DNA of 64,000 nucleotides from an uncultured archaeon (lineage in GTDB: Archaea > Aenigmatarchaeota > Aenigmatarchaeia > CG10238-14 > SCSR01), in NCBI GenBank assembly GCA_964372485.1, contig CAYJQI010000001.1, forward strand, positions 323,110-387,109, in the 5' to 3' direction. Position 1 is the first letter of the stretch. The number at the start of each line of letters is the position of its first letter. Shown here piece after piece: positions 1,654-62,337 of the stretch. The notes under the pieces are model-generated. The model had not been told where the DNA came from. It ran no database searches and saw only the letters and a program-made list of their open reading frames with translations. A program made the position numbers and the translations under genes.

Positions 1654-4016
1654 TTACAAAAGTAATATTGAAGAATTGGAGATCGCATCAGAATTCCACA
1701 TTGGGATTTTCTCCAGGAACTAATGCACTCATTGGAATAATGGGTAGCGGAAAAAGTTCAATATTGAATGCGATTTGTTTTGGTCTCTTTGGCACTAATC
1801 CAGAAATACAATCAAGAAAATTAAAACTAGACGAACTAATAACAAACAAACCAACACCTAAAGATCTTGCTGAAATAGAAGTATTTTTCAAAGTTGATGG
1901 AACTGAATATTCTGTGAAAAGAATAATTGAAAAAAGAAAAGGTACGTCATATTCTGAATTGCGAGTAAATGGGAAATTGCAAGAAGCACCTAGTACACAA
2001 AGAGTCAATGAACTTGTGGAAAAAATAATGAAAGTCGATTATGAACTTTTTAGCAAAGCAATCTATTCCGAACAAAACGCAATGGATTATTTCCTAACTA
2101 TTCCTAAAGGTCAACGAATGAGAAAGATCGATGAATTATTGATGATTGACAAATTTGAAAGGGCAAGAAGTAACACAATTTCATTAATAAACAGAATAAT
2201 AGAAAGAAAATCTGCAATGGAATCGTCACTTACGAATGTTAACATGACTGAACTTCAAAATACGATCGATAATCTAAAATCTTCTGTTGAAAATATTGTT
2301 AATGAGAAAGTTCAAATTGAAAAAAATATAAAACAAATCTCTCTTGAAAGAGCAACCTTGGAAAAGGAACTTCAGACTTTCTATAAAACTAAAGACAATT
2401 TTGATACTTTGAAAAGAGAAGAAATAGCTTTCTCAAGTGCAATCAATGAAATAGCATCTACTCTTAAAAAACTGGAGGAGTCATTAAAGGGAGTGAATGG
2501 GGATGATATAGAGAAAAATATAAAATCATTTTCAGATATTTCAACAAAATTAGAACAAACCTTTGCTGAAAGACAGGAAGAATATCATAAACTTGCAGAG
2601 CAATTTTCTAAAGCTAAAGCTGAAGCAGAAATGTACAAAAGAGAAACAATAAGTCGATTACAAAATGAGCTTGAGGAAAAACTTCAATTACAAAGGGATG
2701 CGAACAAATTCAAGAAGCAGATAGGTGGCAGTGTCGACAAGATAATGGAGGAGAAGAAGAAACTAGTTGAAAAGTACGTTGGTAAAATGGAAGCAATGCG
2801 AATTAAAATTGAGGATGCTACGAACATAATAGATCAATTGTCTTCCATAAAAGCAAAATGTCCAATATGTGAAGCAAAAATTACTGAAGCTAGAAAAATA
2901 ATTTTGATCAAGCAAAAGAAAGTTCAAGTTAAGGATTTGTATGAAGAAATGGAACATGCAGCGAAGCAAAAACAAATGAGTGAACAAGATCTCAAGGATC
3001 TTGAAATGTCGATTGTTAAATTAAATAGAATACTGGACGAAATAGAAAATTTGGATGCTATAAAGTCAAATCTGGAAAATGCTGAACATATATACAAAGT
3101 GTTAGAAGAAAGTTCTTTGAAACTAGAGAAGGAAATAAAAACTACACGAATAGATCTTGAAAAAATGTCGAAAACCCTATCAGAAACACGAAGTGAAAAA
3201 CAAAAGTATGATTTGATATCATTACAAATGAAAGATTATGAAACCAAGAAATCCAGAATAAATGAATTGATTAGACAAAGAGATGAAATAAACCGTCATC
3301 TACAAACTTTGGAAAAATTGGTAACAGGAAAAGAATCATCTTCTTTGGAGACAAGTTTGAGGAATCTTGTAGGTCAAGAAAGAGAACTGATGGCTAAATT
3401 AGCTGCTTTAGACCAAATTTTACTAGAAAGAGAAGTACGATTGAAGGAATTGGATTCTACCTTTACCAAAACTACAAAAGAAAGACAGAATATAAAGAAA
3501 TTCGAGGATTTGTCCGTACAATTAAAGATTTTTGAAAAATCACTCGAACAAACACAGATACAATTACGTCAAGAATTCATAACACTCGTCAATTATTCCA
3601 TGTCTCAATTATGGCAGACGCTTTATCCATATCAGGATTTCACAGGAATACGGTTGAATATTGATGAAGGAGATTATGTTTTGCAACTGCAATCACGAAA
3701 TGAATGGGTAAATGTTGAAGGTATTGCATCAGGTGGTGAGAGAAGTATAGCGGCTTTGACATTGAGGATTGCATTTTCCCTAGTTCTGGCGCCTAACCTT
3801 AGGATGATATTCTTGGACGAGCCTACACATAATCTAGATTCCAATGCCGTTGCTATGCTTTCATCTGTATTAAGGGAAAGAATAAATGAATTCATCGATC
3901 AGACATTTCTAATAACACACCAAAGCGAACTGGAGGAAGCTGTTACAGGCATGGCTTATCGATTGGAAAGAGATAAAGTAAATGATGGATATACTCAGAT
4001 CACACAATTAAATTAG
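1650..4016 (+). CDS. rad50: DNA double-strand-break repair ATPase Rad50.
   Basis: Walker A (GSGKSS), long coiled coil with a CPICEAK zinc hook, ABC signature (SGGERS) and Walker B (IFLDEP). Confidence 0.9.
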   Translation: MITKVILKNWRSHQNSTLGFSPGTNALIGIMGSGKSSILNAICFGLFGTNPEIQSRKLKLDELITNKPTPKDLAEIEVFFKVDGTEYSVKRIIEKRKGTSYSELRVNGKLQEAPSTQRVNELVEKIMKVDYELFSKAIYSEQNAMDYFLTIPKGQRMRKIDELLMIDKFERARSNTISLINRIIERKSAMESSLTNVNMTELQNTIDNLKSSVENIVNEKVQIEKNIKQISLERATLEKELQTFYKTKDNFDTLKREEIAFSSAINEIASTLKKLEESLKGVNGDDIEKNIKSFSDISTKLEQTFAERQEEYHKLAEQFSKAKAEAEMYKRETISRLQNELEEKLQLQRDANKFKKQIGGSVDKIMEEKKKLVEKYVGKMEAMRIKIEDATNIIDQLSSIKAKCPICEAKITEARKIILIKQKKVQVKDLYEEMEHAAKQKQMSEQDLKDLEMSIVKLNRILDEIENLDAIKSNLENAEHIYKVLEESSLKLEKEIKTTRIDLEKMSKTLSETRSEKQKYDLISLQMKDYETKKSRINELIRQRDEINRHLQTLEKLVTGKESSSLETSLRNLVGQERELMAKLAALDQILLEREVRLKELDSTFTKTTKERQNIKKFEDLSVQLKIFEKSLEQTQIQLRQEFITLVNYSMSQLWQTLYPYQDFTGIRLNIDEGDYVLQLQSRNEWVNVEGIASGGERSIAALTLRIAFSLVLAPNLRMIFLDEPTHNLDSNAVAMLSSVLRERINEFIDQTFLITHQSELEEAVTGMAYRLERDKVNDGYTQITQLN

Positions 4017-4048
4017 AATTTTATTACCCGGCAAATCAATTTTATTAT

Positions 4049-4444
4049 ATGAAATCTCAGGTCGCTCTAGAGTATCTTATGGTTATTGGGTTGGCATTGA
4101 TCGTTGTAATACCGTTCTTCTATTATGCATTAACGAATTCATCGGATTCCGTTCTTGTAGCTCAAACTCAGGATGTTGTAGATACTTTAGCAAAAACAAG
4201 TGACTATGTTTATTCTTTAGGTACTGGATCATCTACAAAAATTGAGATAACAATACCTGAAAATATTAAACGCAGTGCTTTGGAAGGTCATCTTATCATA
4301 CTCGAATTGCATACTAGTTCTGGTGTTACAAATGTTACGGCTTCTTCACGTGCAAATTTGATTGGCACTATACCGATAGAATCAGCTACATATTCAATAT
4401 TAGTCAATATGACAGGATCAAATGTGGAAATTAAGAAGGTTTAG
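4049..4444 (+). CDS. Pilin-like protein with a class III (type IV prepilin-like) signal peptide.
   Basis: N-terminus MKSQVALEYL followed by a hydrophobic helix (DUF361-like QxxLEY motif). Lies 32 nt after rad50. Confidence 0.6.
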   Translation: MKSQVALEYLMVIGLALIVVIPFFYYALTNSSDSVLVAQTQDVVDTLAKTSDYVYSLGTGSSTKIEITIPENIKRSALEGHLIILELHTSSGVTNVTASSRANLIGTIPIESATYSILVNMTGSNVEIKKV

Positions 4445-4446
4445 TT

Positions 4447-4860
4447 ATGAAAGGTCAGAGTGGATTTGAAGTCCTTATAGCAATCTCTTTAGTTCTGATA
4501 CTTTTAATTTTTTCCATAATAGCATATGTGACAAAACGCGGGGAGGTGGATTTTACACGAGAACATATAGAAGCACAAACAATTTGTTTTGAAATCAAAA
4601 ATGTGATAAATCAAATATTTTCTGATGGACCTGGTGCGAATTTGCCATTGAATGTTTCCAGTAAATTGGAAGATAATGATTTTAACGTGACTGTTAATTC
4701 TCCTAGCCGATCCATATCCGTTGAATGGAAAGGAAATGTATTTTCATGTACGATGGTCGTTCAAAATGTCACTAACAGTACTTTCAGTAAAATTTTCAAT
4801 ATAAAAAGCGGAACGTCGACTATAAAAAATGTTGAGGGAGTTGTTGTAATTGAACCGTAA
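4447..4860 (+). CDS. Pilin-like protein with a class III signal peptide.
   Basis: MKGQSGFEVL followed by a hydrophobic stretch. KG|Q is a PibD/EppA-type cleavage motif. Confidence 0.65.
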   Translation: MKGQSGFEVLIAISLVLILLIFSIIAYVTKRGEVDFTREHIEAQTICFEIKNVINQIFSDGPGANLPLNVSSKLEDNDFNVTVNSPSRSISVEWKGNVFSCTMVVQNVTNSTFSKIFNIKSGTSTIKNVEGVVVIEP

Positions 4861-5353
4861 AGGACAATTTATCACGACAGAACTTTTGGTAACAATGTCA
4901 ATTATAATATTTTTGTTCATTGTTGCTACATTCATGTGGAATACCATATCGGACAAAATTGTTGAAAACAGGGTAAGAAATGAAGTAAGAACTACTGCTA
5001 TAGATGTTTCCGATCAACTTTTAAAATCTAGTGGTGTCCCATCTGATTGGGAAACAAGGCCAGGTCAAAATTTTTCTATAGGACTAGTGGATAGAGACAA
5101 TAAACTAAACATAAATAAGACTTTGGAATTGAAAAAAATGAATTACCCTTCACTCAAAACTTCGCTAGGTGTATCTGCATATGGATTCTATTTTAAAGTT
5201 ACTGACCTTTTTGGAAATATTTTAAGTTATTCTGGAAATAATCTTGATGCCGGTTTAAAACCAACTTCAAATGCTAGTATGATAGTAAATTCCAAACGCC
5301 TAGCAATATGGAACAACAATATAGTTTCTGTGGATGTGGTATTATGGCTATGA
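4850..5353 (+). CDS. Pilin-like protein with a class III signal peptide.
   Basis: MNRKGQFITTELL followed by a TM helix. Overlaps the upstream gene by 11 nt. Confidence 0.6.
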   Translation: MNRKGQFITTELLVTMSIIIFLFIVATFMWNTISDKIVENRVRNEVRTTAIDVSDQLLKSSGVPSDWETRPGQNFSIGLVDRDNKLNINKTLELKKMNYPSLKTSLGVSAYGFYFKVTDLFGNILSYSGNNLDAGLKPTSNASMIVNSKRLAIWNNNIVSVDVVLWL

Positions 5354-6867
5354 GACATGGATTTGTTTTTAGCTTAGATACAGCTCTGGCAATTACGATT
5401 GCAATATTTTTAATTGCAGGAACTTTTTATTTTCTCAATGCCAATGAATCTGATGCGTTCAGTAGGTTATACATGACAAAATTTGCAAATGATCTTCTGA
5501 TAACCGCCGATAAAAATGGAACACTCGAAACATTGAACACGTCTTTCATAAGGAATATGTTATCCAATACGATCGCATCAAATTTTGCTTCTAAAATTAC
5601 AATCGATTCATATCAATGCTTTAATCAACAATGTCAAAATTTCAGCAAGACAAACACTACCATAATGTTCATTCCAACTGCAAAAATAGATGTTGTGCTT
5701 GTGTTTGACACATCGGGAAGTATGGATGATGATGGTATAGAGCAGTCTCCAGGAGTTTGTTTTAATCAACGGCAACCTATTTGTGATGCAAAAGAAGCTG
5801 CAAAAGGCTTTATTGATTTATTAGATCCTGTCAATGACAGATCTGGATTGGTTGCTTTTAATACTACTGCCATATTATCCAACCCTCTTACATATAATCA
5901 TGTGTCAATTAAAAATGGGTTGACAAACCTTGTTGCAAGTGGTAATACGGCTATAGGGGACGGAATAAATGTTGCAAATCAAGAACTTCAAAGTAACGGA
6001 AGACAAGATTCAAAATATTTTATAATACTTTTAACAGATGGTATGAACAATCAGGGGCTAGAACCGCTCATGGCTACCGACGATTCTGTGGATATTGGAG
6101 TTCCAATTTATACTATAGGATTAGGTGAAGATGTGAATGTAGAGCAACTTCAAACTATTGCAAATACTTCAGGAGGAAAATATTACTTTGCACCTACCAG
6201 TGATCAATTGGAAGGTATCTATAATGAAATAGCTGCGGATATTTTCGGAGAAGCTGATAATTATGTTATTGCACGGAGAAGTTTCCTTACTTTCGACAGT
6301 AATCGAATCAAATATTTCAACATTGCTGAAATACGAATGTGGTTGAGAGATATAATAACAGAGTTCCATCCAAAAAGTGTTTTCTATCATAGTTTTGAAG
6401 ATTTAGGTTGTGAGGGCGAAAATTGTTTCAATACTACGGTTTGGGATCCAATAGAAAGAGGTGGTGATAATAATGAAGCTACAACGCAAGATGCTCGTTC
6501 TTACACTGGCGATTTTTCTGCTGAACTGGAGGAAGGCGATGAAGGAGAAGTTGCACTTACCACTGCGGCAGGGTTAATAAATTTGGCTGGTTATTCGAGC
6601 TGTACTCTAAAACTATATGTTAATTTAGACAGTAACTGGGAAACGACTGATGATATTTTCCTAGACATATACGATGGCAGTTGGCACTATGGGGTTCTAA
6701 AAATAGACGGTGACCTGATCGATGATGATGAATGGCATCGTTTCAAGTTTTCCTTCACTTCACAGAACTATGTCTTCGATAACAATTTCCGATTAAGGAT
6801 AGATCATGAAGCGAGTGATGATAACGAAGAAGCATTTTACGATGATATAAGAATATTATGTTCCTAG
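5344..6867 (+). CDS. vWA (MIDAS) domain protein with a pilin-like N-terminus. Putative pilus adhesin.
   Basis: MAMRHG|FVFSLDTALAITIAI pilin-like N-terminus. vWA motifs DVVLVFDTSGSMDDD and LLTDGMNN. The track start at 5308 is probably an over-extension. Confidence 0.65.
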   Translation: MAMRHGFVFSLDTALAITIAIFLIAGTFYFLNANESDAFSRLYMTKFANDLLITADKNGTLETLNTSFIRNMLSNTIASNFASKITIDSYQCFNQQCQNFSKTNTTIMFIPTAKIDVVLVFDTSGSMDDDGIEQSPGVCFNQRQPICDAKEAAKGFIDLLDPVNDRSGLVAFNTTAILSNPLTYNHVSIKNGLTNLVASGNTAIGDGINVANQELQSNGRQDSKYFIILLTDGMNNQGLEPLMATDDSVDIGVPIYTIGLGEDVNVEQLQTIANTSGGKYYFAPTSDQLEGIYNEIAADIFGEADNYVIARRSFLTFDSNRIKYFNIAEIRMWLRDIITEFHPKSVFYHSFEDLGCEGENCFNTTVWDPIERGGDNNEATTQDARSYTGDFSAELEEGDEGEVALTTAAGLINLAGYSSCTLKLYVNLDSNWETTDDIFLDIYDGSWHYGVLKIDGDLIDDDEWHRFKFSFTSQNYVFDNNFRLRIDHEASDDNEEAFYDDIRILCS

Positions 6868-6900
6868 GATCTAATAATAAGCAAATACAATAAATAATTT

Positions 6901-7830
6901 ATGAAGGGAATTGTTTCTACGTTAATTATATTGTTAATTTTCACTGTATCTTTGTTACTTGCAATAAGCTTTTCATCTAAAACATTGGAACTGGATGATA
7001 TAGTAATACGAAATCTTGTGCTGGATAAGGTTTATAATACATTTATTTCAATAGAACATGCCGTTCAAGAATTGATGCTCTTTGTATCCCCAAATGGTGG
7101 AATTAATGTTACTATATCTGATCAAAATAACTTTACAATAGTTACTTTCAATGAAACATTACCACGATATGTAAACTCTTCTAAATTTAATGAAGATTTG
7201 GAGAACTTTGAAAGATTCGCAGAAACGAAACTAAACGAAACAAATATAGCAGTTGATTTAATTCTTGATGCTAAATGCCTTTCCTTCGTTATTCAACCAT
7301 ACAATATAACATATACACATAATCCTGGGATAGATTGTTTGAGTGTAAGTGCTCATACAGAAGTTGTTGTAGATCCACAATCCAGTTGGCAGTATGTGAA
7401 TGGATACTCGTTTATTTTCAGGCCAAATGGTAATTTATCTGGAGCATCTATTACAGGATGGAGCGGTCCAGGTTGCAATAAGCCAGGGTTAGGACTCAAT
7501 ATAACTATCGCAGGTAAAGATATCACATTAGGTCCTTCTGCGACTACCAGCAATTACAATAGAATGTGTAGATACAATATTGATGATATATCATGCCCGG
7601 CTGGATTAGGCTATATTCACCTTATCCATAATCAAAATTCCGACGTTACCGATAATGGTGTAGTAGATATAGAAATTCATCCTAATTGCAACATTACGTC
7701 GGCAGTGTCATTGAATTTGACTAAAACAACAGGAAAGGTAAGCGTAGAGTCACTTTTCCAAAAAATAAAGATAAAGGAAACCCTATATAGAATAGAAAAG
7801 AATGACACAATCCGGAATATTGGTGGTTAG
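6901..7830 (+). CDS. Secreted, sequon-rich protein with a pilin-like N-terminal TM segment.
   Basis: MKG|IVSTLIILLIF N-terminus, many N-x-S/T sequons and six Cys. Confidence 0.45.
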   Translation: MKGIVSTLIILLIFTVSLLLAISFSSKTLELDDIVIRNLVLDKVYNTFISIEHAVQELMLFVSPNGGINVTISDQNNFTIVTFNETLPRYVNSSKFNEDLENFERFAETKLNETNIAVDLILDAKCLSFVIQPYNITYTHNPGIDCLSVSAHTEVVVDPQSSWQYVNGYSFIFRPNGNLSGASITGWSGPGCNKPGLGLNITIAGKDITLGPSATTSNYNRMCRYNIDDISCPAGLGYIHLIHNQNSDVTDNGVVDIEIHPNCNITSAVSLNLTKTTGKVSVESLFQKIKIKETLYRIEKNDTIRNIGG

Positions 7831-8952
7831 TTGAGAACTATAATGGATATTATAAAAGATCTTTTGAATCGACGTCAAAAGCAAGTTGAAATCACACTTT
7901 CAGAGCCAATAGAACCTCCATCACAACCAATTAGAAAAGTTAAGAGAAGGGTTAAACGGGTTAGAAGAACAAAAGCAAAAATAAAAACTACTCGTACAAA
8001 ATCAGTTGTGAAAATTAAACCACCTCGAATAAGCACCGTTGCACCTGAGAAAGAAATTGAAATACCCAAAATTCAAGTTTCTTCAGTAGAGAAATTGCAA
8101 AAAATTCTAGAACAAAGTGATCTATCAACTTCTCCAAAACAAGAAAGTAATGTAATAAAACCTGCTCAAAAAAGTCGGTTTCATCTTAGTTTTCCATCAT
8201 TTCGAAGAATAAACAAATCTAGCGAACAAAAATTGCGATCACCAATTCCACATAAAACTAAAAAAGAATCATTTGTAACAAAAATTCCTACAGAGCATAT
8301 CACAGAAGCTATTGTTGCCGATGTTATGTCACGAGATGTTAGTTCATTAGAACCGAATGATACAATAAGTTACGCGATCAGATTATTTTCAGATAGAAAA
8401 ATAAGTGGTGCCCCAGTGGTGAAAGGTACCAATTTGGTAGGTATGTTGGTTGAATCTGATATAATAAAACTCATAGGAAGCAAGGAACTTTTATTAGGTC
8501 AGGGAAAGGGACTGAAATCTCTCGGGGAGATTAAAGTGGAAGGTGTTATGCATAGAAATCCAATTACTGTGCGTGAGTATACAAAATTATCTGAAGTAGC
8601 GGATTTGATGAATAAATACGGAATCACACAAATACCAGTTTTAGATGAGCGACGAGAATTAACTGGAGTTTTATCACGTAGCGATATAATGCGTGCAGTC
8701 TCCAAGAAATTATTATTCAAGTTATTACAAAAACACGAAGTACAGGAGGTTATGAAAGTAGATACGGATATTGATGAGATTCTTCAAATTGTTGAAAGGA
8801 GAGGATCGATCGGGATGGATGAAATTCAGAAAAGATTAACAATACCTGAAGACAAAATTGAAGAATGGGGTAAGATTCTAGAAAGACATAACTTGATTGA
8901 GATGTTCTATCCCCCTATTGGAAAGCCAGAATTTAGGAAGAAGATATCATGA
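7831..8952 (+). CDS. CBS-pair domain protein with a basic low-complexity N-terminus and a winged-helix-like C-terminus. Putative regulator.
   Basis: K/R-rich repeats (RKVKRRVKRVRRTKAK), two CBS-like modules (VMSRDV ... GAPVV ... GVMHRNPITV ... IPVLD). Its stop overlaps the ATPase start. Confidence 0.7.
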   Translation: MRTIMDIIKDLLNRRQKQVEITLSEPIEPPSQPIRKVKRRVKRVRRTKAKIKTTRTKSVVKIKPPRISTVAPEKEIEIPKIQVSSVEKLQKILEQSDLSTSPKQESNVIKPAQKSRFHLSFPSFRRINKSSEQKLRSPIPHKTKKESFVTKIPTEHITEAIVADVMSRDVSSLEPNDTISYAIRLFSDRKISGAPVVKGTNLVGMLVESDIIKLIGSKELLLGQGKGLKSLGEIKVEGVMHRNPITVREYTKLSEVADLMNKYGITQIPVLDERRELTGVLSRSDIMRAVSKKLLFKLLQKHEVQEVMKVDTDIDEILQIVERRGSIGMDEIQKRLTIPEDKIEEWGKILERHNLIEMFYPPIGKPEFRKKIS

Positions 8953-10481
8953 AGGAAAATGAAGTAATTGCAAAATATTTTATAGAGGGGTATAAGGTTA
9001 AAGCAGAAGTTAGTGTTGAACGAACTATAAAGGAATTTGTTCCATTATATGTTTTGAAACTCCCCGAGATACAGCCAGCCACTTTGGCTTTGATGGATCA
9101 GATAAGAGAAAAGATTTTAGCACAAGCTGCAATTAAGACGACAGAATTATTAGAACCAAAAGCTTTCGAAGACCTCAAAGTAAAATTTTATGAAAGGGCT
9201 TATGAATTAGTTAGCAGAGAATTGGCAAATGAAACTCAAAACGTGTGGCAGTTTCTTGCTGGTATGCTTGTTTATGAGATGTTGGGTTTAGGTAGATTGG
9301 AACTTTTAATTGCTGATGGGGAACTTGAGGATATTGTAATCAACAATGCAGAAGATCCGATATGGGTATATCATAGAAAACATGGATGGCTTAAAACCAA
9401 TGTTGTAGTCCCCTCAGAATCACAAATTCAAAATTATGCTGCAACAATCGGACGAAGAGTTGGTAGACAAATAACTACACTGGCTCCATTGATGGATGCT
9501 CACATGACGACAGGTGATAGGGTTAATGCCACGTTATTCCCTATCAGTACTTCTGGAAATACGATAAGCATACGAAAATTCAGGAGAAAACCATGGGTAA
9601 TTACCGAACTTTTAGAAAGCAACACATTGTCTTTGGATATAGCCGCTTTATTGTGGTTGGCGATTCAGTATGAAAGTAATGTGATTTTCTCAGGTGGAAC
9701 AGGGTCTGGTAAAACAACTTTTCTAAATGTTCTGATGCCATTTATCCCGCCAAATCAAAGAATACTCAGCATAGAAGATACACGAGAGATTCAATTACCA
9801 AGATTCTTGCACTGGGTTCCATTAACAACTAGAGAACCAAACCCTGAGGGTAAAGGTGGAGTTTCAATGTTGGACCTTCTTGTGAATAGCTTGCGTATGA
9901 GGCCAGATAGAATCGTTGTCGGTGAGATTAGAAGAGGTGAACAGGCAGAGGTTTTGTTTGAAGCAATGCATACAGGTCACAGTGTTTATGCAACACTTCA
10001 CGCAGATACAGCAGAGCAAACTTATCGAAGATTGATTAATCCACCAATTAATGTTCCGCAGACATTGTTAGAAGCATTGCATCTTATTGCGGTTGCCTTC
10101 AGAGATAGAAGAAAAGGTATACGTAGAATTTTCCAAATAGCTGAAATTGTTCCGGTAACAAAATGGGAAGAGTACAGTCCACATATTAACGTTTTGTACA
10201 AATGGAATCCTGCAGACGATATAATTAAAAAAGTTAAAGAAAGTGTGCGAGTTTTAGATGAATTGAAACTGCATACAGGAATGACTGATCAAGAATTCCA
10301 AAAGGATTTGATAGAAAAAGCATCCATCTTAAAATGGATGAAGGATAAGAAAATCAATACAGTCGATGGTGTAGGAAAAGTAGTTGTTGAATATTATTTT
10401 GACCCCGATAAAGTTTTGAGTGTTGTTAAAAAGAATGAGAATCCGACAACGCTTGTTCCACCGGCACTGCTTCAGGTGTGA
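8949..10481 (+). CDS. Type IV pilus / secretion ATPase, FlaI/TadA/VirB11 family.
   Basis: Walker A FSGGTGSGKTTFLNV, followed by IEDTREIQL and His-box-like motifs. Confidence 0.85.
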   Translation: MKENEVIAKYFIEGYKVKAEVSVERTIKEFVPLYVLKLPEIQPATLALMDQIREKILAQAAIKTTELLEPKAFEDLKVKFYERAYELVSRELANETQNVWQFLAGMLVYEMLGLGRLELLIADGELEDIVINNAEDPIWVYHRKHGWLKTNVVVPSESQIQNYAATIGRRVGRQITTLAPLMDAHMTTGDRVNATLFPISTSGNTISIRKFRRKPWVITELLESNTLSLDIAALLWLAIQYESNVIFSGGTGSGKTTFLNVLMPFIPPNQRILSIEDTREIQLPRFLHWVPLTTREPNPEGKGGVSMLDLLVNSLRMRPDRIVVGEIRRGEQAEVLFEAMHTGHSVYATLHADTAEQTYRRLINPPINVPQTLLEALHLIAVAFRDRRKGIRRIFQIAEIVPVTKWEEYSPHINVLYKWNPADDIIKKVKESVRVLDELKLHTGMTDQEFQKDLIEKASILKWMKDKKINTVDGVGKVVVEYYFDPDKVLSVVKKNENPTTLVPPALLQV

Positions 10482-11386
10482 ATATGCCTCAACGCCGTAT
10501 ACCATTTGTACTTTTTTCCACTAATAGAATTTTAAATTATTCAAGGAGCCTTGGATTATTTGGTATAGGTAATCGAATTTCAAAATTATTTCCATTCCTT
10601 TCACTTTACTTGTATCAATCAGAATCAACTCATGACGCAGGTGAATATGTTTCTATCGCCCTTTTTTCTGCTATTACATGGTTTATAATTCCATTCTCAT
10701 TCGGAATGTTTCTTTCATTAGTAGCGACACTTCCTTCTAATTTTCCTTTAATTATTACAGCGGTCTCTTTTGCAATGTTTGGATTATCATTTTTGTATAT
10801 AATTTTTTATCCCAGAGTATTTGTTACAAGAAGAACTCGTGAGTTGGAGAAGAATTTGCTATTCGCATTAAGACATTTGATGATTCAGGCAAAATCTGGT
10901 ATACCTCTTTTTGATTCGATGGCATCTGTCGCACGCGCAAATTATGGTTTGGTATCCAAAGAATTCAATGAAGTTGTTCGAAGGATCAGTACAGGAGTAA
11001 GAGATGTAGAGGCGTTGGAAGAATTGGCTTTGAAAAATCCATCATTATACTTCCGACGAGCTCTTTGGCAAGTGTCAAATGCAATTCGAGTCGGAGCTGA
11101 TATAGGAAACACATTGGAAATTATCATACAAAATCTTGCGAATGAACAAAGAATACTTGTAAGAAAATACGGTTCACAACTTAATCCTCTTGCATTTCTT
11201 TACATGATGTTTGGTGTAATAATGCCAAGTTTAGGCATAGCATTGTTGATAATATTATCATCTTTCGCAGGATTGCCAATTAAAAAATATTTCTTCTGGG
11301 CGATTTTGGGATTTCTGGTTATTTTCAAGTTTAACTTTCTTGGAATAGTCAAAAGCAGAAGACCATCGGTGGAAGTTTATGTATAG
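10478..11386 (+). CDS. Pilus platform membrane protein, first half (TadB/FlaJ-like T2SSF domain).
   Basis: Polytopic membrane protein with one T2SSF-like domain. Overlaps the ATPase gene by 4 nt. Confidence 0.7.
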   Translation: MNMPQRRIPFVLFSTNRILNYSRSLGLFGIGNRISKLFPFLSLYLYQSESTHDAGEYVSIALFSAITWFIIPFSFGMFLSLVATLPSNFPLIITAVSFAMFGLSFLYIIFYPRVFVTRRTRELEKNLLFALRHLMIQAKSGIPLFDSMASVARANYGLVSKEFNEVVRRISTGVRDVEALEELALKNPSLYFRRALWQVSNAIRVGADIGNTLEIIIQNLANEQRILVRKYGSQLNPLAFLYMMFGVIMPSLGIALLIILSSFAGLPIKKYFFWAILGFLVIFKFNFLGIVKSRRPSVEVYV

Positions 11387-12362
11387 ATTCTTTTATGCAC
11401 TCAGCCCTGTGAAATACAGGAAGTGGGTTACACAACAACTCAACTATTGTGATTTTTCAGTATCGCCAATAAAATTAATTGGTTTCTTGATAATTTTTGG
11501 TCTGATGGCAGGATTTGCTGCAGGTTTACTTTTGTACGGATTTGGGATTGTCGGATTAATTGGTTTTCTTATTACTTGGATAGCGGTGTTGATGGGTTTT
11601 GAAATATTGAGTCATCTCACTTTGATTTTCGTTGCAGATGGCAGAGCAAATTTCGTAGAACAGATTTTACCGGATGCACTACAGATAGTTTCTGCAAATA
11701 TGCGTTCAGGATTGACTCCAGATAAGGCAATTTTGACATCGGCACGACCGGAATTTGGTCCACTTGAGAAAGAATTGAGAAAAGCAGCAAAGGAGACTTT
11801 ATCGGGTAAATCTTTCGAAGATGCGTTGAAAGGGGTTACTGCAAAAATTAAATCAAAAAGTTTAGATAAGACAATTGCACTTGTTGTTGAAGGATTATCG
11901 AAAGGCGGAAGCATAACAAGTCTATTGGATAGCGTGGCAGATGATATAAGACAGGCTCGAGTGCTCAGAAATGAAATAAAATCATATGTCATGATGTATG
12001 GAATATTTATTTTCTTTGCAGCTGGTGTCGGAGGACCTTTGCTTTACTCTGTTGCAACGTATTTGATACAAACAATGACAACTATTGGGGGCTCTGTTGA
12101 TTTGGGAGATTCTTTGACACAATCTTCAATACCATTGCTTAAATTTGGATCGGCTGAGATAGATGTGGATTTCTTACGAACGTATTCCTATATTGCTATA
12201 GTAGTGACAGCATTTTTTGGTAGTTTGTTGATAGGACTGGTTCAGGAAGGCACTGAAAAAGGTGGTTTGAAGTTTTTCCCGATTCTTCTAGTTGTTGGAT
12301 TGGGCGTTTTTACAGTAACTCAGATCGCTCTAAAAGGTATTTTTGGTACACTTGCGGGATAG
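11379..12362 (+). CDS. Pilus platform membrane protein, second half (TadC/FlaJ-like T2SSF domain).
   Basis: Second T2SSF-like domain with TM helices. Overlaps the previous gene by 8 nt in a different frame. Confidence 0.7.
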   Translation: MYRFFYALSPVKYRKWVTQQLNYCDFSVSPIKLIGFLIIFGLMAGFAAGLLLYGFGIVGLIGFLITWIAVLMGFEILSHLTLIFVADGRANFVEQILPDALQIVSANMRSGLTPDKAILTSARPEFGPLEKELRKAAKETLSGKSFEDALKGVTAKIKSKSLDKTIALVVEGLSKGGSITSLLDSVADDIRQARVLRNEIKSYVMMYGIFIFFAAGVGGPLLYSVATYLIQTMTTIGGSVDLGDSLTQSSIPLLKFGSAEIDVDFLRTYSYIAIVVTAFFGSLLIGLVQEGTEKGGLKFFPILLVVGLGVFTVTQIALKGIFGTLAG

Positions 12363-12388
12363 TGCTTTATAAGGCAGGAAAACGAAAT

Positions 12389-12874
12389 ATGAGTTATATG
12401 TTTAAAATAGTACGAAAAGGCCAAACGGCTTTGGAATACTTGATGACTTACGGGTGGGCTATATTGATAGTAATCATTGCTATCGGTGCCCTTTACGCTT
12501 TAGGACTTACAAAACCATGTAGATGGACAGGAACACAAATAACAGGATTCACAGGTGGTGGATTCGAAGCATCTGTTCCGAGATTTAGTGGAGGTGGCGA
12601 CGATCTAGTATTGGACTTCAAAAGAATCGGAGCCAATTCAGTAAATTTCTATCACGCAAATGCAACGTACAAGACAGCACATATCGACTTGAACTCAACT
12701 GAACCTAATGCGATATTGGCGACAGGCGCAACAAAAACAGTCACATTTGATTTCAATCCTCCAGAAGATTCATCATCCGGTGACTGCTATGCAGTTGATA
12801 TAATACTAGGCTACAGCGAAAGTGGAAGAAATTTCACAGCAGCAGGTCGAGTTAGCGGAACAATTGAAACTTAA
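12389..12874 (+). CDS. Pilin with a class III signal peptide.
   Basis: MSYMFKIVRKG|QTALEYLMTYGWAILIV. The track start at 12362 is a GTG extension. Confidence 0.65.
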   Translation: MSYMFKIVRKGQTALEYLMTYGWAILIVIIAIGALYALGLTKPCRWTGTQITGFTGGGFEASVPRFSGGGDDLVLDFKRIGANSVNFYHANATYKTAHIDLNSTEPNAILATGATKTVTFDFNPPEDSSSGDCYAVDIILGYSESGRNFTAAGRVSGTIET

Positions 12875-12875
12875 A

Positions 12876-14378
12876 TCACATAAAAGTCTCTAAATCAGTA
12901 GCACTAAGATTAGAATCAGCGAAACCCAAAAGTTCGTCTTCAAGATTTTTTCCTTTCCCAATTATTTTACTTTTTCTTTCTCTTACATTAACCAAAATAG
13001 GGTAGTTCACAGCTTCTCCAACAATAAATGCTTCACCAACTTTTAATCCTGGAATTGAACTTAATATACCGCTTGTAATTCCTTCTGAACTTTCTTTTAT
13101 ATGATCGAGGTCGTACGGGTTAGTTACACGCATAATGATGTCGGTATTGCATTGTGAAAGTGCGGTTGTAGCTAATCCGGCAGGTCTTTGTGTTATCAAT
13201 GTTAAACAAGCATTAAACTTTCTACCTTCACGAGCTATTTGTTCGATTATACTTCTAGATAATGCAAGATCATGTTCTTCGCCTTCCGGTGCGAATTGAT
13301 GCGCCTCTTCTACAAATAAAACGAATGGAGATATTTTCTTTTGTCGTCTCGCTTCGAATAATTTCCATGCAAAGTAAGCAACAATTATTTGTTTTCTTTT
13401 AATGTCCACAATATCCGACAAATCAAAAATACTTAGATTTCCTTTGAATGCAAGATCCTTTATCGAAGGATAGTCTCTGTTGGAAAATAATCCTGTATAT
13501 TCAATTTCATGCAACCAAGATGCCAGAACTTCTTTTGTATTGTCTTTAATCTCACTTTTCAATACTGCATCAATAAGATCTTGCATGTTGTATGTAGGTT
13601 TTTCTTCCCTGAGTTTTCTAATCACAGGTCCAAGTTCTCTTCTTTGAACAGCAGAAATTTTTGGCTGTAAAACTGAAAGTTGATATGCAGACAAACTATT
13701 CGTCGATATACTGATTTCATTTGCATTGTAAACTTTGGTGGATAATCTATACTTTTCATCCTGCGCAAATCCACTATATTCACCATGCGGATCCACAATA
13801 ATTACAGACGGCCTTGCATTTCTTTCTCTGTTAAGAAGTTCTTCCAATAAAACTGAAGTTAAATATGATTTTCCTGCACCGGACATTGCAAGTATGGCTA
13901 GATGTTTTTGGAATAGTTTTGTAATATTAATTTTAGCATCGATATTATGAAATTCAACTTTACCAAGATTCAATCCAGAATTAACATCCAATCCCAAAGC
14001 ATTGTTCAATAAAGTTTCATCAATTGGAAATACATCATTCCCAGGTGATGGGGGAAATGTTACTCGTTTTTGCATTCCATTAGAGAAAATTCCTAAAGGA
14101 CGCGCCTGAGCAATTAAATATTCCCATCTATCAACAGGAAATTGATCGATGAGAGGTTTGCCTGAACGTTCAAATTCACTCACAGATTCTGCACGTTGAT
14201 AATAACGGTTGGTTTTTATAATATCTTCCACTCGAGCAACTAGAACTCCATCTTGAGTGTCCAATTGAATAAATTCACCTTTCCTTACAGGCACACCTTT
14301 ATTCTCATTTAGAACGAACCAGAATTCCGTACTGTTTGGGCCTAGCTCAGATGAAATAACTGTGCCAATCTCTCGCAT
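12876..14378 (-). CDS. herA: HerA-like (DUF87) FtsK-superfamily ATPase.
   Basis: N-terminal barrel, Walker A MSGAGKS, IVDPHGEY, Walker B VEEAHQF and a QRPAGL C-terminus. Convergent with the last pilin gene. Confidence 0.75.
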   Translation of the reverse strand: MREIGTVISSELGPNSTEFWFVLNENKGVPVRKGEFIQLDTQDGVLVARVEDIIKTNRYYQRAESVSEFERSGKPLIDQFPVDRWEYLIAQARPLGIFSNGMQKRVTFPPSPGNDVFPIDETLLNNALGLDVNSGLNLGKVEFHNIDAKINITKLFQKHLAILAMSGAGKSYLTSVLLEELLNRERNARPSVIIVDPHGEYSGFAQDEKYRLSTKVYNANEISISTNSLSAYQLSVLQPKISAVQRRELGPVIRKLREEKPTYNMQDLIDAVLKSEIKDNTKEVLASWLHEIEYTGLFSNRDYPSIKDLAFKGNLSIFDLSDIVDIKRKQIIVAYFAWKLFEARRQKKISPFVLFVEEAHQFAPEGEEHDLALSRSIIEQIAREGRKFNACLTLITQRPAGLATTALSQCNTDIIMRVTNPYDLDHIKESSEGITSGILSSIPGLKVGEAFIVGEAVNYPILVNVRERKSKIIGKGKNLEDELLGFADSNLSATDLETFM

Positions 14379-19156: not shown

Positions 19157-21499
19157 TCATTTGCTTTCAGTAATAGTTTTCTTTTTGCGGCCAAACATTG
19201 AAAAGAATTTTTTCAATCCAGTCGGTTTCTTTTCGTCAGCAGGTTTTGCGAATACATATCCGGTTGCAGTTCTATATCCTTTCTTCGATGGCCAGAACAA
19301 GTACCCTACAAATGCTACGATGACTATAATAAGAATCACTACAACTATTATCCAAACACTCGAAGACACGTTCAATAATCCGTTAGGCTCGGCAGATTCA
19401 ATTCGTGCCTCAATTTCTGCAATGAGAGCTTGGACAATATCCAAAGTTTCTTCTGCGTTGAAATAATCGTTAGCGGTTATGTAATCTTCGGCTTGCTTCA
19501 ATGCAGCTTTCAATTCGTTTAATTTTTGTTCTATAGGCTCAGTATTGTTTGTAGTATTTTTAATTGCGTTAAATTCACTTTCCAATTTACTTGCTTCTAA
19601 TTTGTATAAAATTAATGTATCATTTATCTTAATTTTTGTTTCAGCCGATGGAAGAATTCTTAATGTGAAATCTTTTGTTACTGTTGTGTTTGTGCTACTT
19701 GCAGAGAATTTTGCAGCATAATCCCTTATATCAAATCCTTTTATTGTGAATGTAATTGTATATGAAAGTGTCTGTCCTATTGCAAATTTCTTAGTCGCTT
19801 GATCAATAGTATACCAACTTTTATCGAGATCTAGTATATCCAAAGTTATGTTTTGTTCAACCCCACCAGTGTTTTTAATTTTAATTTCTGTTATATTGGT
19901 TTGGTTCTGGATTATCTCTATCAATTGAGGATATTGGATGAAGCTTATGCTGGCCGATGGAGTGAGTTTTATAGACAATGTATTCTTACTGGTTCCAGTT
20001 GTGTAATTTTGATCTGAAGTGCTGTTACAAAGATATTCATATTTGCTTCCTGCAGTGAAGGTTTGTGTTTCGGGATTACTTACAGACGTCAAGTTTCTGT
20101 ATAGATTCGCTGTTAATCCACTCACTCCTACCGAACAAGTTACAACAGTTTGCACAGGAGTGTCCAATTCCCATTGAGGAGATATTGTAAGAGTTAATGG
20201 TGCAGCGGCTTTATTAATTGTAAATGATGTTGATGGAGTTAAATTGAATACATGATCCTGATATTTTCCAAATATTCTCCATGAATGAGTGCCGGCCGGC
20301 AAGGAAGCATTATAATAATAGTAAAGACTCGAGTTTGTTAAAGTGAAATTTTGAGTTGTACTCCATCCTCCTTCTATGAACGAAGTTACAAAGCCAGGAT
20401 TACTTGCAAATGTTGTGTTGAATATGCTATAAGTTGTGTTTGAAAATGTAAGAGGGATATTTGATGTGGTTGTTGTATAACTTGGAACTGTTGCAACAAA
20501 ATAAGTTGCAGTATTTGTGCTATAGTTAGTATTTGTAGCAACGGTAACAGTATAGTTATGCAATCCTATTGATGTAATCACATCATTTATCGTGTATGTG
20601 TTAGGAACACCAGACGCAACTGTTGTGGTGTTGTCTCTCGTTATCGTAACATTACAATTGGTTTGAGAACATGTTGCATTTGTAGTTATGTTGATTGCGG
20701 TATTGTTTATAGCTGTTATGTTTGTGTTTAATGACCCATTTAGATATACTTTTAATGTGTTGGTCGCTTTCGCTACTAAATATGTGAATTGAATTGTTGA
20801 ATTGAATGTGTTGTTTGTGTCATTTGCATATACTCTCCAAACATACGTACCGGCAGAAAGATCGGAAGTGTTGAAATAATACACACTGCTTGAATTGCTC
20901 ATTGTTTCGTTATGGATGGTAGAGCTTCCTGTTATATTGTGTTCTAACAAAACTTTTGAAATCCCCACATTATCTGTCCATGTTATGTTAAACCAGTAAC
21001 TTTGATTTTGAGCATAACTAGTGTTTGAGCTTGGAGTTGTTGTATTGCTTGAATATGCAGGAGCGATGATGTCAAATAATGTTAATGATACATTGTTGGA
21101 AGTAAATGCACCGGTTATGTCTGTTGTTGATATGTTGAATCCATTACTTCCAGTTGATAGCGGAGTGTCGACGTATATCCAGAAATATTGTGTGGCTCCA
21201 TTTCCAATTAGTCCCAGTATAGAACTATTTGTCCATGCAGGAGAAGATGATGAAGCTGTATAAGGGTTTGTATTTGTTGTACCGGAGCTTCCCGTGAATG
21301 CAAATCCAGGAGGTAGTGTGATATTCAAGTGGGTGATGTTTACAGATCCTGTATTTGCAATAGAAAAGTTGATTAGTTGACTGCTTTGTCCAGATGCAAG
21401 TGTTGTTGGGCTGGAACTAGCTGTAAATGTCGCAGCTAAAGAAGTGCTCACTACGATAAAGAAAGCCAATAAAGAAAAGAGAATAATCAATCTTGTCAT
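19157..21499 (-). CDS. Large cell-surface protein with many N-glycosylation sequons (S-layer or adhesin candidate), C-terminal TM anchor.
   Basis: Signal peptide, T/N/S-rich with dozens of N-x-T/S sequons, internal repeats, and a C-terminal hydrophobic helix followed by a basic tail. Confidence 0.6.
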   Translation of the reverse strand: MTRLIILFSLLAFFIVVSTSLAATFTASSSPTTLASGQSSQLINFSIANTGSVNITHLNITLPPGFAFTGSSGTTNTNPYTASSSSPAWTNSSILGLIGNGATQYFWIYVDTPLSTGSNGFNISTTDITGAFTSNNVSLTLFDIIAPAYSSNTTTPSSNTSYAQNQSYWFNITWTDNVGISKVLLEHNITGSSTIHNETMSNSSSVYYFNTSDLSAGTYVWRVYANDTNNTFNSTIQFTYLVAKATNTLKVYLNGSLNTNITAINNTAINITTNATCSQTNCNVTITRDNTTTVASGVPNTYTINDVITSIGLHNYTVTVATNTNYSTNTATYFVATVPSYTTTTSNIPLTFSNTTYSIFNTTFASNPGFVTSFIEGGWSTTQNFTLTNSSLYYYYNASLPAGTHSWRIFGKYQDHVFNLTPSTSFTINKAAAPLTLTISPQWELDTPVQTVVTCSVGVSGLTANLYRNLTSVSNPETQTFTAGSKYEYLCNSTSDQNYTTGTSKNTLSIKLTPSASISFIQYPQLIEIIQNQTNITEIKIKNTGGVEQNITLDILDLDKSWYTIDQATKKFAIGQTLSYTITFTIKGFDIRDYAAKFSASSTNTTVTKDFTLRILPSAETKIKINDTLILYKLEASKLESEFNAIKNTTNNTEPIEQKLNELKAALKQAEDYITANDYFNAEETLDIVQALIAEIEARIESAEPNGLLNVSSSVWIIVVVILIIVIVAFVGYLFWPSKKGYRTATGYVFAKPADEKKPTGLKKFFSMFGRKKKTITESK

Positions 21500-22098: not shown

Positions 22099-22743
22099 TT
22101 GTGCCAGATGCTTAAATCATATATGAAATCCACTAAATTGCCTGTTTTCAAAACATTGAGTGAAGGATTTGAACTGTTGAAAAATTATCCTATTATATTC
22201 GTCCCTGTGTTCATATCGACAGTTGCCTCCTTTTTGACACCTGATGATTTTCTGATATCAATTGCGAGTGCTCTTGTTCAGGGGTTTCTTTACCTGGTAA
22301 CTATAGTAATGACTTGGCAGGCGCTTACAAAAAGAAAAATTTTAATTGGGGATGCAGCTGAACTTTCACTTAAACGAGTTCCTCAGGTAATATTAGGTAC
22401 TATTCTTTTCTTCATTGCAATTGTAGCTGGTTTCATTGCGTTGATAATACCTGGAATTTTCCTTTCAATAAAGCTGGTTTTCTTCCAGTATTTTATACTT
22501 TTTGAAAATGTTGGAGTAATGGATTCTTTCAAGAAAAGTTGGAAAGCTACTGATAAAAATTGGTGGAGAATGTTTGCACTTAATTTGCTGCTTGTTATAT
22601 CCTTTATACCTGCGGGTGTAATATCACTTCCTGTAGCTTTTGTCAGTTCTATAGTTAGTATCATGTTATTGTCTGTACTTACAACAGTTGTTTCCGCTTG
22701 GTACACAACTTCTTTGGTTGTTGCTTATAAGAAATTGAGGTAG
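22099..22743 (+). CDS. Polytopic membrane protein.
   Basis: Four to five hydrophobic helices. Confidence 0.45.
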   Translation: MCQMLKSYMKSTKLPVFKTLSEGFELLKNYPIIFVPVFISTVASFLTPDDFLISIASALVQGFLYLVTIVMTWQALTKRKILIGDAAELSLKRVPQVILGTILFFIAIVAGFIALIIPGIFLSIKLVFFQYFILFENVGVMDSFKKSWKATDKNWWRMFALNLLLVISFIPAGVISLPVAFVSSIVSIMLLSVLTTVVSAWYTTSLVVAYKKLR

Positions 22744-22836
22744 TGTCCCCGATGGGATTTGAACCCACAACCTCATCCTTAGGACGGATTTGAACTACTT
22801 TCGTATTCGCTCTGGTCCAGGTTGAGCTACGGGGAC
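22744..22836 (-). tRNA. tRNA-Arg (anticodon CCU) with a roughly 17-nt intron at a non-canonical position (D-arm / anticodon-stem junction).
   Basis: Acceptor GTCCCCG/CGGGGAC, D-arm GCTC..GAGC, anticodon loop GTCCTAA, T-arm GTGGG-TTCAAAT-CCCAT, discriminator A. The 93-nt length requires an insertion after position 26. Confidence 0.7.
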
Positions 22837-22857: not shown

Positions 22858-22864
22858 TTTTAAA
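22858..22864 (-). promoter_or_regulatory. Putative TATA box for tRNA-Arg(CCU).
   Basis: TTTAAAA about 25 nt upstream of the tRNA 5' end. Confidence 0.3.
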
Positions 22865-44767: not shown

Positions 44768-44976
44768 CTAAGAAACCTCCTTATTCAGAAATCGGTTAAG
44801 GGTCCTCTGCAACCACTTGGCAGAATCCTCCCCTATTGCCCCAAAACGAGCAACAGAGGTAGTATCAATACATTCAAGAGTAGAATAATAATGTTAGAAT
44901 CAAGATTCAATAATTGAGTTGGTCCCAAATTCATCAATAATCACTGATTTTATAAAACTCATTAAAACTTTAAAAC

Positions 44977-44999: not shown

Positions 45000-45088
45000 G
45001 CTCCCGTAGCTCAACTTGGATAGAGCAAATATTATAGCTCAATTCCCTTCTAAGGAAGAGGTTGAGGGTTCAAATCCCTCCGGGGGCA
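45000..45088 (+). tRNA. tRNA-Arg (anticodon UCU) with a roughly 14-nt intron at a non-canonical position.
   Basis: Acceptor GCTCCCG/CGGGGGC, D-arm, anticodon loop CTTCTAA, T-arm GAGGG-TTCAAAT-CCCTC. The 89-nt length needs an insertion after position 26. Confidence 0.7.
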
Positions 45089-57419: not shown

Positions 57420-57587
57420 TTATACCTTAATTCTAGTTCTTCTCCATCTTTTTATTGATGTTATTTGTATTCTTCTTCTCCTTGCCTTTTTCATTCCAAA
57501 TTTTCTTATGTCTGCCCATCTTGGAGCATTCTTTACTTTGTGAATTCTCGCAAGTTTTATCTTCTTACCAACTGTTTTTCGGCTCAT
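57420..57587 (-). CDS. rpl39e: Ribosomal protein L39e (55 aa), below the ORF-track cut-off.
   Basis: Translated manually: MSRKTVGKKIKLARIHKVKNAPRWADIRKF...KRWRRTRIKV. Confidence 0.7.
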   Translation of the reverse strand: MSRKTVGKKIKLARIHKVKNAPRWADIRKFGMKKARRRRIQITSIKRWRRTRIKV

Positions 57588-60441: not shown

Positions 60442-60503
60442 TTATAATTACAATCACTCAATATAGTACATTAATAGGATTTAAATAGCTTTTGATAAAT
60501 CAT

Positions 60504-61205: not shown

Positions 61206-61258
61206 TATATCTGGAATTCAAAATCACCTTGAGAATAAATTTCTTTCCACTATTTAAA

Positions 61259-62322: not shown

Positions 62323-62337
62323 AAACTAATTTACAAT

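Follow-up and report, generated by a model that had tools for sequence, protein, structure and literature searches.

Two arginine tRNA genes in the 64,000-nt stretch of DNA analysed here (“the window”), termed t1 and t2 in the following, carry short inserts between the D-stem and the anticodon stem. Very probably, these inserts are introns spliced by the tRNA-splicing endonuclease (EndA), whose predicted excision yields tRNA-Arg(CCU) from t1 and tRNA-Arg(UCU) from t2 (Table 1). The introns are located at the non-canonical site 27/28; they are of a kind already known in archaea and leave the accepted picture of tRNA splicing unchanged. Support for this site comes from two related genes of one genome.

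Table 1. Features of the two interrupted tRNA-Arg genes in the window and composition of the corresponding genes in related archaea.
Feature	Source	Coordinates	Strand	Remarks
t1, tRNA-Arg(CCU) gene	window	22744..22836	-	93 nt including discriminator A73; CCA not encoded; spliced form is a canonical cloverleaf
t1 5′ exon	window	22807..22836	-	tRNA positions 1-27
t1 intron	window	22790..22806	-	AUACGAAAGUAGUUCAA; 17 nt; junction 27/28 according to the BHB register
t1 3′ exon	window	22744..22789	-	tRNA positions 28-73
t1 helix H, strand 1	window	22809..22812	-	GAGC, D-stem 3′ strand; positions 22-25
t1 helix H, strand 2	window	22792..22795	-	GUUC, intronic; followed by bulge AA/A with the 3′ splice site
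t1 intron-side helix h′	window	22796..22805	-	UAC-GAAA-GUA; 3 bp, GNRA tetraloop
t1 anticodon	window	22781..22783	-	CCT; Infernal alignment and in-silico splicing
t2, tRNA-Arg(UCU) gene	window	45000..45088	+	89 nt
t2 intron	window	45029..45042	+	AUAUUAUAGCUCAA; 14 nt; junction 27/28
t2 helix H, strand 1	window	45023..45026	+	GAGC; positions 22-25
t2 helix H, strand 2	window	45037..45040	+	GCUC, intronic; followed by bulge AA/U
t2 anticodon	window	45049..45051	+	TCT; Rfam alignment and in-silico splicing
L022, Arg(CCU) orthologue	GCA_016187415.1			no intron
L016, Arg(CCU) orthologue	SRR16110251			11 nt at 37/38
L017, Arg(CCU) orthologue	GCA_016187385.1			11 nt at 37/38
L019, Arg(CCU) orthologue	GCA_964570195.1			13 nt at 37/38
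L021, Arg(CCU) orthologue	GCA_964645905.1			13 nt at 37/38
L026, Arg(UCU) orthologue	GCA_016187385.1			no intron
L024, Arg(UCU) orthologue	GCA_053537075.1	4334-4436	-	15 nt at 30/31 and 13 nt at 37/38; closest relative, LeuRS 77%
L025, Arg(UCU) orthologue	GCA_038997065.1	3406-3528	-	14 nt at 30/31 and 34 nt at 37/38
L027, Arg(UCU) orthologue	GCA_016177025.1, JACOWB010000008.1	3954-4087	-	12 nt at 20/21 (D-loop), 15 nt at 30/31, 13 nt at 37/38 and 18 nt at 42/43
L003, tRNA-Arg(CCU)	JACRAC010000036.1, more distant Aenigmatarchaeota MAG	866-969		29-nt intron at 29/30

The initial annotation had described t1 as a 93-nt tRNA-Arg(CCU) gene with a 17-nt insert between D-stem and anticodon stem. This description holds, including the coordinates; the orientation had to be corrected, to the minus strand. 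Read from 22836 to 22744, the gene consists of GUCCCCG UA GCUC AACCUGGACCA GAGC G A (intron AUACGAAAGUAGUUCAA) AUCC GUCCUAA GGAUG AGGUU GUGGG UUCAAAU CCCAU CGGGGAC A, where the arm AAUCC-GUCCUAA-GGAUG gives the anticodon CCU, and the same arm is picked by Infernal local alignment. Upon removal of positions 22806-22790, a canonical cloverleaf of 76 nt remains, which is identified as tRNA-Arg(cct) by ARAGORN; the predicted spliced junction is GAGCGA-AUCCGUCCUAAGG. Since the identical t1 sequence is contained in two independent Logan assemblies (ERR3478686 and ERR4904391), the insert is no assembly artefact.

A pair of such off-site introns had been claimed, and its second member is found in t2, in which 14 nt are inserted at the corresponding position; the gene has the sequence GCUCCCG UA GCUC AACUUGGAUA GAGC A A (intron AUAUUAUAGCUCAA) UUCC CUUCUAA GGAAG AGGUU GAGGG UUCAAAU CCCUC CGGGGGC A. 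Once positions 45029-45042 are removed, ARAGORN returns a 75-nt tRNA-Arg(tct) with the predicted spliced junction GAGCAA-UUCCCUUCUAAGG. Outside the insert, both genes are intact, containing U8, A14, G18G19, U33, the GTTCAAATC T-loop as well as fully paired acceptor and T stems. In t1 and t2 alike, removal of the insert restores a canonical cloverleaf with the conserved tertiary nucleotides, by which bulge-helix-bulge (BHB) introns are recognized. When compared in the spliced form, t1 and t2 are identical to their syntenic orthologues at 63-69 of 76-77 positions.

The surroundings of the t1 3′ exon display two peculiarities. The junction between intron and 3′ exon, GUUCAA/AUCC (22786-22795, minus strand; slashes denote cut sites throughout), is identical in 10/10 nt to the gene’s own T-loop segment GUUCAAAUCC (22755-22764), a repeat that has no counterpart in t2 and may be due to chance or may be a trace of the intron’s origin. 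Furthermore, a convergent gene for a UPF0259/DUF7847-like membrane protein (22099-22743, plus strand) directly adjoins t1, its stop codon abutting the last base of t1 at 22744, and there is no spacer for separate terminators between the two.

The target of the archaeal splicing endonuclease is a 4-bp helix followed by a 3-nt bulge on each strand, with the cut occurring after the second bulge base. The cut position assumed here is consistent with the canonical 37/38 introns found in relatives. This register (4 bp, 2 bases, cut) was applied to every junction giving the identical spliced product. Owing to A repeats, four junctions (26/27 to 29/30) are equivalent in t1 and four are equivalent in t2; at exactly one of these per gene, 27/28 in both cases, all four pairs (4/4) of the central helix H are formed. 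The junction 26/27, which had been proposed earlier, does lead to the same spliced product, but only 2/4 helix pairs are available there and the motif puts the cut at 27/28.

In t1, helix H is formed by GAGC (positions 22-25) and GUUC, a pairing already named in the initial annotation and comprising the pairs G-C, A-U, G-U and C-G; the bulges are GA/A and AA/A, and the intron-side helix h′ (UAC-GAAA-GUA) has 3 bp. In t2, GAGC pairs with GCUC, the bulges are AA/A and AA/U, and h′ is made up of only 2 AU bp, which are unstable according to energy computation. Both genes have the central helix of 4 bp, which on either strand is followed on its 3′ side by three unpaired nucleotides, while the exon-side helix h is reduced to 1 bp in both, which is less than in the strict hBHBh′ motif. 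Given that an exon-side outer helix of at least 2 bp is missing, the motif is a relaxed one, as had been suspected for t1 from its GAGC:GUUC core. The t1 motif is of the HBh′ type, while that of t2 is closer to a bulge-helix-loop, as the unstable h′ leaves the 5′ site in a 10-nt loop. Relaxed BHB motifs count as members of the class if the host has a broad-specificity EndA (PMC3239211).

When random genomic 17-mers or 14-mers were inserted at the same place, a 4/4 helix arose by chance in 3.6-3.8% of trials, and a 4/4 helix combined with an h′ of at least 2 bp in ~0.5% of trials per gene. At site 27/28, where two sequences only can be compared, the change in the helix is one-sided, with GUUC versus GCUC against an invariant GAGC. 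As H uses the D-stem 3′ strand, its formation requires D-stem melting, and in the precursor the two structures exclude each other; the computed energies of the BHB and cloverleaf-like conformers differ by 0-4 kcal/mol.

Orthologous loci in related archaea were identified by conserved gene order together with conserved upstream blocks. In these relatives, predicted intron removal always restores an Arg tRNA of 75-77 nt. When the two introns of the window and 13 introns of relatives are taken together, 13/15 have 4/4 pairs at a single junction in the strict register and 2/15 have 3/4 pairs; among the introns of the Aenigmatarchaeota relatives, located at sites 20/21, 29/30, 30/31, 37/38 and 42/43, 11/13 are 4/4 in register. 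At the level of sequence, the register rule used on t1 and t2 is validated inside the clade, which, judging from these genes, is clearly able to remove short introns from several sites other than the canonical one. The 30/31 introns of L024, L025 and L027 have the helices CAGC:GUUG, CAAC:GUUG and CAGC:GCUG, respectively; hence, G-U, A-U and G-C replace one another as the third pair of the helix, both strands having changed. The 29/30 intron of the more distant L003 shows the hBHBh′ motif in full, with GCAC:GUGU as H, 4 bp in h′ and 3 bp in h.

The most unusual item seen is the gene L027, which is 133 nt long and was found with identical sequence in L028 (Logan SRR12113430). Each of its four inserts forms 4/4 helix pairs when read in the strict BHB register, and a canonical 75-nt tRNA-Arg(tct) remains after their removal. 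ARAGORN miscalls this gene as Pro(ggg), and it is missed by Rfam at the gathering threshold. The published maximum is three introns per tRNA gene (PMC3239211, PMC3293823), which the four-intron gene would exceed.

In most Arg tRNAs of the clade (t1, t2, L019 and L024-L027), the uppermost position of the anticodon stem is occupied by a purine-purine mismatch, A27-G43 or G27-A43; C27-G43 is found there in four CCU orthologues. The 5′ exon of t1 and t2 ends with the unpaired A27.

Conservation extends to the upstream regions of the loci. The TATA-like element TTTAAAA of t1 (22858..22864, minus strand; -28 to -22) is located within the block GTTAATTATTTAAAA, which is common to the window and 4/5 Arg(CCU) orthologous loci, namely L016, L019, L022 and, ending in AAAT, L017; L021 differs. 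The same TATA-like element is present upstream of t2 (44969..44975, plus strand; -31 to -25), again in a block shared by the orthologues, of which TCATTAAAACTTTAAA and TTATAAATATT are invariant and are separated by two variable bases. In 28 window genes, AGA accounts for 59% and AGG for 9% of the Arg codons; thus, the cell needs both tRNAs.

The automatic calls offer a different identity for both genes. ARAGORN, run on the unspliced genes with and without intron options, reports Phe(aaa) for t1 and Ala(agc) for t2, which would make them intronless tRNA-Phe(AAA) and tRNA-Ala(AGC) genes with a long variable arm, the insert hairpin serving as anticodon arm; in the local Rfam alignments, this hairpin is likewise used, but in the role of the D-arm. 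Such tRNAs would need an unmodified A34 together with a class II variable arm of ~21 nt on Phe and Ala tRNAs. Variable arms of this length are known solely from the tRNAs for Leu, Ser and Sec and from bacterial tRNA-Tyr. Moreover, the presumed variable arm is a perfect stem of 4-5 bp with a 7-nt loop of the form YU-NCU-AA, laid out as the anticodon arm of the orthologues, while the presumed anticodon stem of t1 contains an A-A mismatch and its 7-nt loop lacks U33. With A34 anticodons, a t1 loop devoid of U33 and a variable arm that is the orthologous Arg anticodon arm, the genes do not belong to the class II tRNAs. Infernal, in the Rfam local alignments, sets the anticodon arm on CCU (t1) and UCU (t2), and the syntenic orthologues in five relatives are unambiguously tRNA-Arg(CCU) or tRNA-Arg(UCU). 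The Phe(aaa) and Ala(agc) calls were rejected as artefacts, which result from reading the insert hairpin as anticodon arm and the real Arg anticodon arm as variable arm; these identities are practically untenable. A differing anticodon from such tools had been named in advance as speaking against the annotation of t1, and ARAGORN did return one, but the call, with its A34 and 21-nt variable arm, is the artefact just described. With the Rfam tRNA model, t1 reaches 18.2 bits versus a threshold of 29 bits, as a local match only that appears at a relaxed threshold, and t2 reaches 35.2 bits in a partial match covering model positions 8-63. Since intronless orthologues score 56-64 bits over their full length, the low scores of t1 and t2 are caused by the inserts alone.

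With the arginine identity of the genes in place, the fate of the inserts has to be considered. They might be retained, either because t1 and t2 are pseudogenes in decay whose function is provided by copies at other loci or because the mature tRNAs keep a hairpin at the 26/27 hinge; the position of t1 below the Rfam threshold would fit this, as would the fact that the set of tRNA genes seen is that of the 64-kb window and not of the whole genome. However, all parts outside the insert are intact, the promoter block is conserved, the t1 and t2 loci are the syntenic and only-seen copies in relatives, AGA is the main Arg codon, and both inserts comply with the splice register far beyond chance; an additional hairpin at the hinge between D-arm and anticodon arm would also be expected to break the L-shape. 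We regard retention as improbable. Alternatively, the inserts may well be introns, yet with cleavage in a different register (26/27, 28/29 or 29/30) or via another fold, e.g., the t1 hairpin GAAUAC-GAAA-GU(A)GUUC. Indeed, four junctions give the same spliced sequence in each gene, and no other local fold of t1 is as stable as this extended intron hairpin, whose computed stability surpasses that of the BHB conformer by 3.9 kcal/mol. Yet a 4/4 helix with 3-nt single-stranded segments exists only at 27/28, which is common to t1 and t2, and the extended hairpin is without counterpart in t2. In the hairpin fold, moreover, the cut sites would lie inside a helix, where EndA does not cleave because of its BHB requirement (PMC3239211), and cleavage in a different register or fold is very improbable.

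Other candidate interpretations were also rejected. A plus-strand match of the Rfam family “Plastid-ycf2” is noise (20.9 bits versus a cut-off of 65.7 bits); it covers the acceptor and T arms in reverse-complement orientation. Self-splicing group I and group II introns possess a catalytic core of a hundred or more nucleotides; the inserts have 14 and 17 nt and are without significant Rfam intron match, a single group II fragment match (11.4 bits, E 2.3) being taken as noise. The exons are contiguous and in order in both genes and no half-gene was seen in the window, hence a split or permuted tRNA gene was dismissed, too. A T-arm motif search of the window detected no further hidden or split tRNAs.

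For arginine tRNA genes with endonuclease-spliced introns at 27/28, the following maturation route can be proposed, the first two steps of which are read from the sequence. Transcription would start from the conserved TATA-like promoter. In the transcript, the 3′ segment of the intron, GUUC in t1 and GCUC in t2, would displace the D-stem 5′ strand and pair with GAGC (22-25) to form H. On the first strand, H would be followed by three unpaired bases (G26 A27/A in t1) and the small intron hairpin; on the second strand, three unpaired bases (A A/N28) would lead into the anticodon stem. The remaining steps are drawn from established knowledge of archaeal tRNA splicing: EndA would cleave both strands, in each case 3′ of the second unpaired base, an RtcB-type ligase would join A27 to N28, and the freed GAGC would pair with GCUC (10-13), forming the real D-stem and, with it, the L-shape.

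Non-canonical BHB introns are documented in Crenarchaeota/Thermoproteales, Nanoarchaeum and ARMAN-2 (PMC4090602, PMC4033280), and both these introns and a broad-specificity EndA are known from DPANN and TACK archaea (PMC4090602, PMC3239211, PMC5829648). Such introns are cut by (αβ)2 and ε2 endonucleases; in DPANN archaea, the disruption of tRNA genes goes along with α4 enzymes that carry an additional loop of the L3 type (PMC4090602, PMC3239211, PMC5829648). With known introns of this type, those of t1 and t2 share the small size, the location outside 37/38, protein-dependent splicing (predicted for t1 and t2), a relaxed motif without one outer helix, a 4-bp helix built from exon and intron, 3-nt single-stranded segments at the cut sites and a DPANN host; the difference is in the site, 27/28. 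Sites given in the literature cited here include 20/21, 22/23, 24/25, 25/26, 29/30, 30/31, 45/46, 53/54, 56/57 and 59/60, of which 24/25, 25/26, 29/30 and 30/31 flank 27/28; in the cited surveys, and within a non-exhaustive search of the literature, 27/28 itself is not among them. The DPANN archaea sampled in PMC5829648 are Pace-, Woese-, Nanohalo- and Micrarchaeota; Aenigmatarchaeota is a phylum not covered by the cited surveys.

The interruptions of Caldiarchaeum tRNA-Thr(GGU) at 24/25 (PMC3293823) and Caldivirga tRNA-Glu(UUC) at 25/26 (PMC4090602) likewise adjoin the D-stem 3′ strand, and in the D-stem introns of Cyanidioschyzon merolae (PMC3728597) the splice motif also competes with the D-stem. 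An interruption beside the D-stem 3′ strand implies this competition, so that the precursor cannot be a cloverleaf. In contrast to all of these cases, the t1 and t2 introns have only 14-17 nt, and their 3′ part copies positions 8-15. With the canonical 37/38 intron, which four t1 orthologues possess in a length of 11-13 nt, they have the cleavage register in common, but t1 and t2 are devoid of a 37/38 intron and their central helix uses a D-stem strand instead of the anticodon loop.

Several observations bear on the history of these introns. The t1 and t2 introns are identical at 11/17 positions and share the site, the helix partner, an ATA start and a TAG-TCAA end; this likeness suggests copying between isoacceptors. 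The t2 intron also resembles the 30/31 introns of relatives: that of L025 likewise has 14 nt and is identical at 8/14 positions, and identity to that of L024 is 9/15. Its helix strand is GCUC versus GUUG in the 30/31 introns, so that it pairs with GAGC, its new partner, and no longer with CAAC, and a 3-nt slide from 30/31 would fit as well as a re-insertion. An intron at 27/28 occurs in none of the 8 related assemblies sampled, and 37/38 introns are absent from t1 and t2. From the relatedness of the two introns and the absence of the relatives’ 37/38 introns, we infer that the window lineage recently lost, moved or copied introns between its two Arg isoacceptors.

The 3′ part of the intron repeats tRNA positions 8-15, exactly in t2 (UAGCUCAA) and at 8/9 positions in t1 (GUAGUUCAA versus GUAGCUCAA). 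This repeat is partly forced by the helix and the AA bulge, the latter being usual in the clade; it is also possible that it represents a relic of a duplicated 5′ tRNA fragment, in analogy to the Caldiarchaeum disruption model (PMC3293823). Among archaea within ~25% protein divergence of one another, the number of introns in these two tRNA-Arg loci is 0, 1, 2 or 4, with six different sites occupied (20/21, 27/28, 29/30, 30/31, 37/38 and 42/43), and, as far as these loci can tell, tRNA-Arg introns of Aenigmatarchaeota turn over quickly.

A comparable situation is the intron transposition of Thermoproteales described in 2010, to the extent that it is cited in PMC4033280 and PMC4090602: similar introns occur in isoacceptors of one genome, and intron content differs sharply among close relatives. 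Here, however, another phylum is concerned, the introns of t1 and t2 are much shorter, two genes only are involved, and transposition is presumed. A tentative and rather doubtful extension would be that Aenigmatarchaeota harbour a still-mobile family of BHB mini-introns of 12-18 nt. The pair at 27/28 would then be fresh, a 30/31 intron having slid or been re-inserted 3 nt upstream in Arg(UCU) and copied into Arg(CCU), at a site that may be unreported, and the intron would act as a decoy for the D-stem 5′ strand.

Further cases and the splicing enzymes were sought in sequence collections. A scan of genome contigs with narrow patterns for Arg tRNAs with an insert between D-stem and anticodon stem gave 3 matches, none at 27/28: L003, with its 29-nt intron at 29/30, and two bacterial matches, one of which is tRNA-like with a masked N run in the gap. 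Among metagenome contigs, a narrow pattern matched only 10 intronless tRNA-like sequences (spans of 59 or 58 nt, mostly Arg(CCU)) on mostly low-GC contigs, without a close relative, and a narrow pattern scan of viral contigs for such tRNAs gave no match. In the window and the fetched loci, no EndA was found by tblastn with the M. jannaschii enzyme (query checked against PDB 1A79), and neither EndA nor RtcB was found there with Pfam. Among the best 120 homologues of the N. equitans EndA α subunit, the named members all belong to Woese-/Nanoarchaeia; none of the 120 is labelled Aenigmatarchaeota or located on the known contigs.

The practical consequence is that standard annotation misses or mislabels t1 and t2, with ARAGORN reporting Phe(aaa) and Ala(agc) and t1 remaining below the Rfam threshold; automatic annotation of the genome concerned would omit the tRNA for its main Arg codon AGA and list two impossible A34 tRNAs. 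Mislabelled tRNAs distort estimates of completeness and codon capacity for DPANN genomes, and incomplete tRNA sets have been noted in new DPANN and Asgard genomes (PMC5829648). Moreover, snapshots showing how tRNA introns are gained and lost have been called for in reviews (PMC4033280). The two Arg loci in related Aenigmatarchaeota constitute such a series, ranging from intronless to four introns and including covariation in the splice helix; the organism of the window contributes a site at which displacement of the D-stem by the intron is required.

By its gene content and nearest homologues, the host is an archaeon of the Aenigmatarchaeota (DPANN). The window has a G+C content of 34.9% and encodes the archaeal markers S6e, L15e, aIF2-gamma, aIF5B, Rrp4/41/42, proteasome alpha, Rpp30, Pop5 and Mre11/Rad50/HerA. 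For the neighbouring GGR-like reductase and LeuRS, the best non-self homologues are 70-77% identical and stem from MAGs of Candidatus Aenigmatarchaeota/Aenigmarchaeota.

The gene neighbourhood is rich in functions related to translation and RNA processing. Seven aminoacyl-tRNA synthetase genes lie within ~25 kb (25800-50919), i.e., those for HisRS, IleRS, AlaRS, LeuRS, PheRS beta and alpha and a Trp/Tyr-type class I enzyme, and both Arg tRNA genes are interspersed near this cluster. The AlaRS is short, with 635 aa, and ends right after the tRNA_SAD domain. An archaeal exosome superoperon (57584-62904, minus strand) comprises an Rrp42/41-like RNase PH pair, Rrp4, SBDS, proteasome alpha, Pop5, Rpp30 and L15e; with Pop5 and Rpp30, protein subunits of RNase P are thus available to mature the 5′ ends of these tRNA precursors. 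The gene at 19157-21499 (minus strand), which is conserved beside the tRNA locus in relatives, encodes a protein of 780 aa that is rich in Asn, Thr and Ser, carries a signal-like segment at its N-terminus and a membrane anchor at its C-terminus and gives no Pfam match; it is likely a surface protein. Finally, in the region 406-14378, genes for a Mre11-like phosphoesterase, a Rad50-like ATPase and HerA flank those for a secretion/pilus ATPase, two T2SSF-type membrane proteins and a VWA-domain protein.
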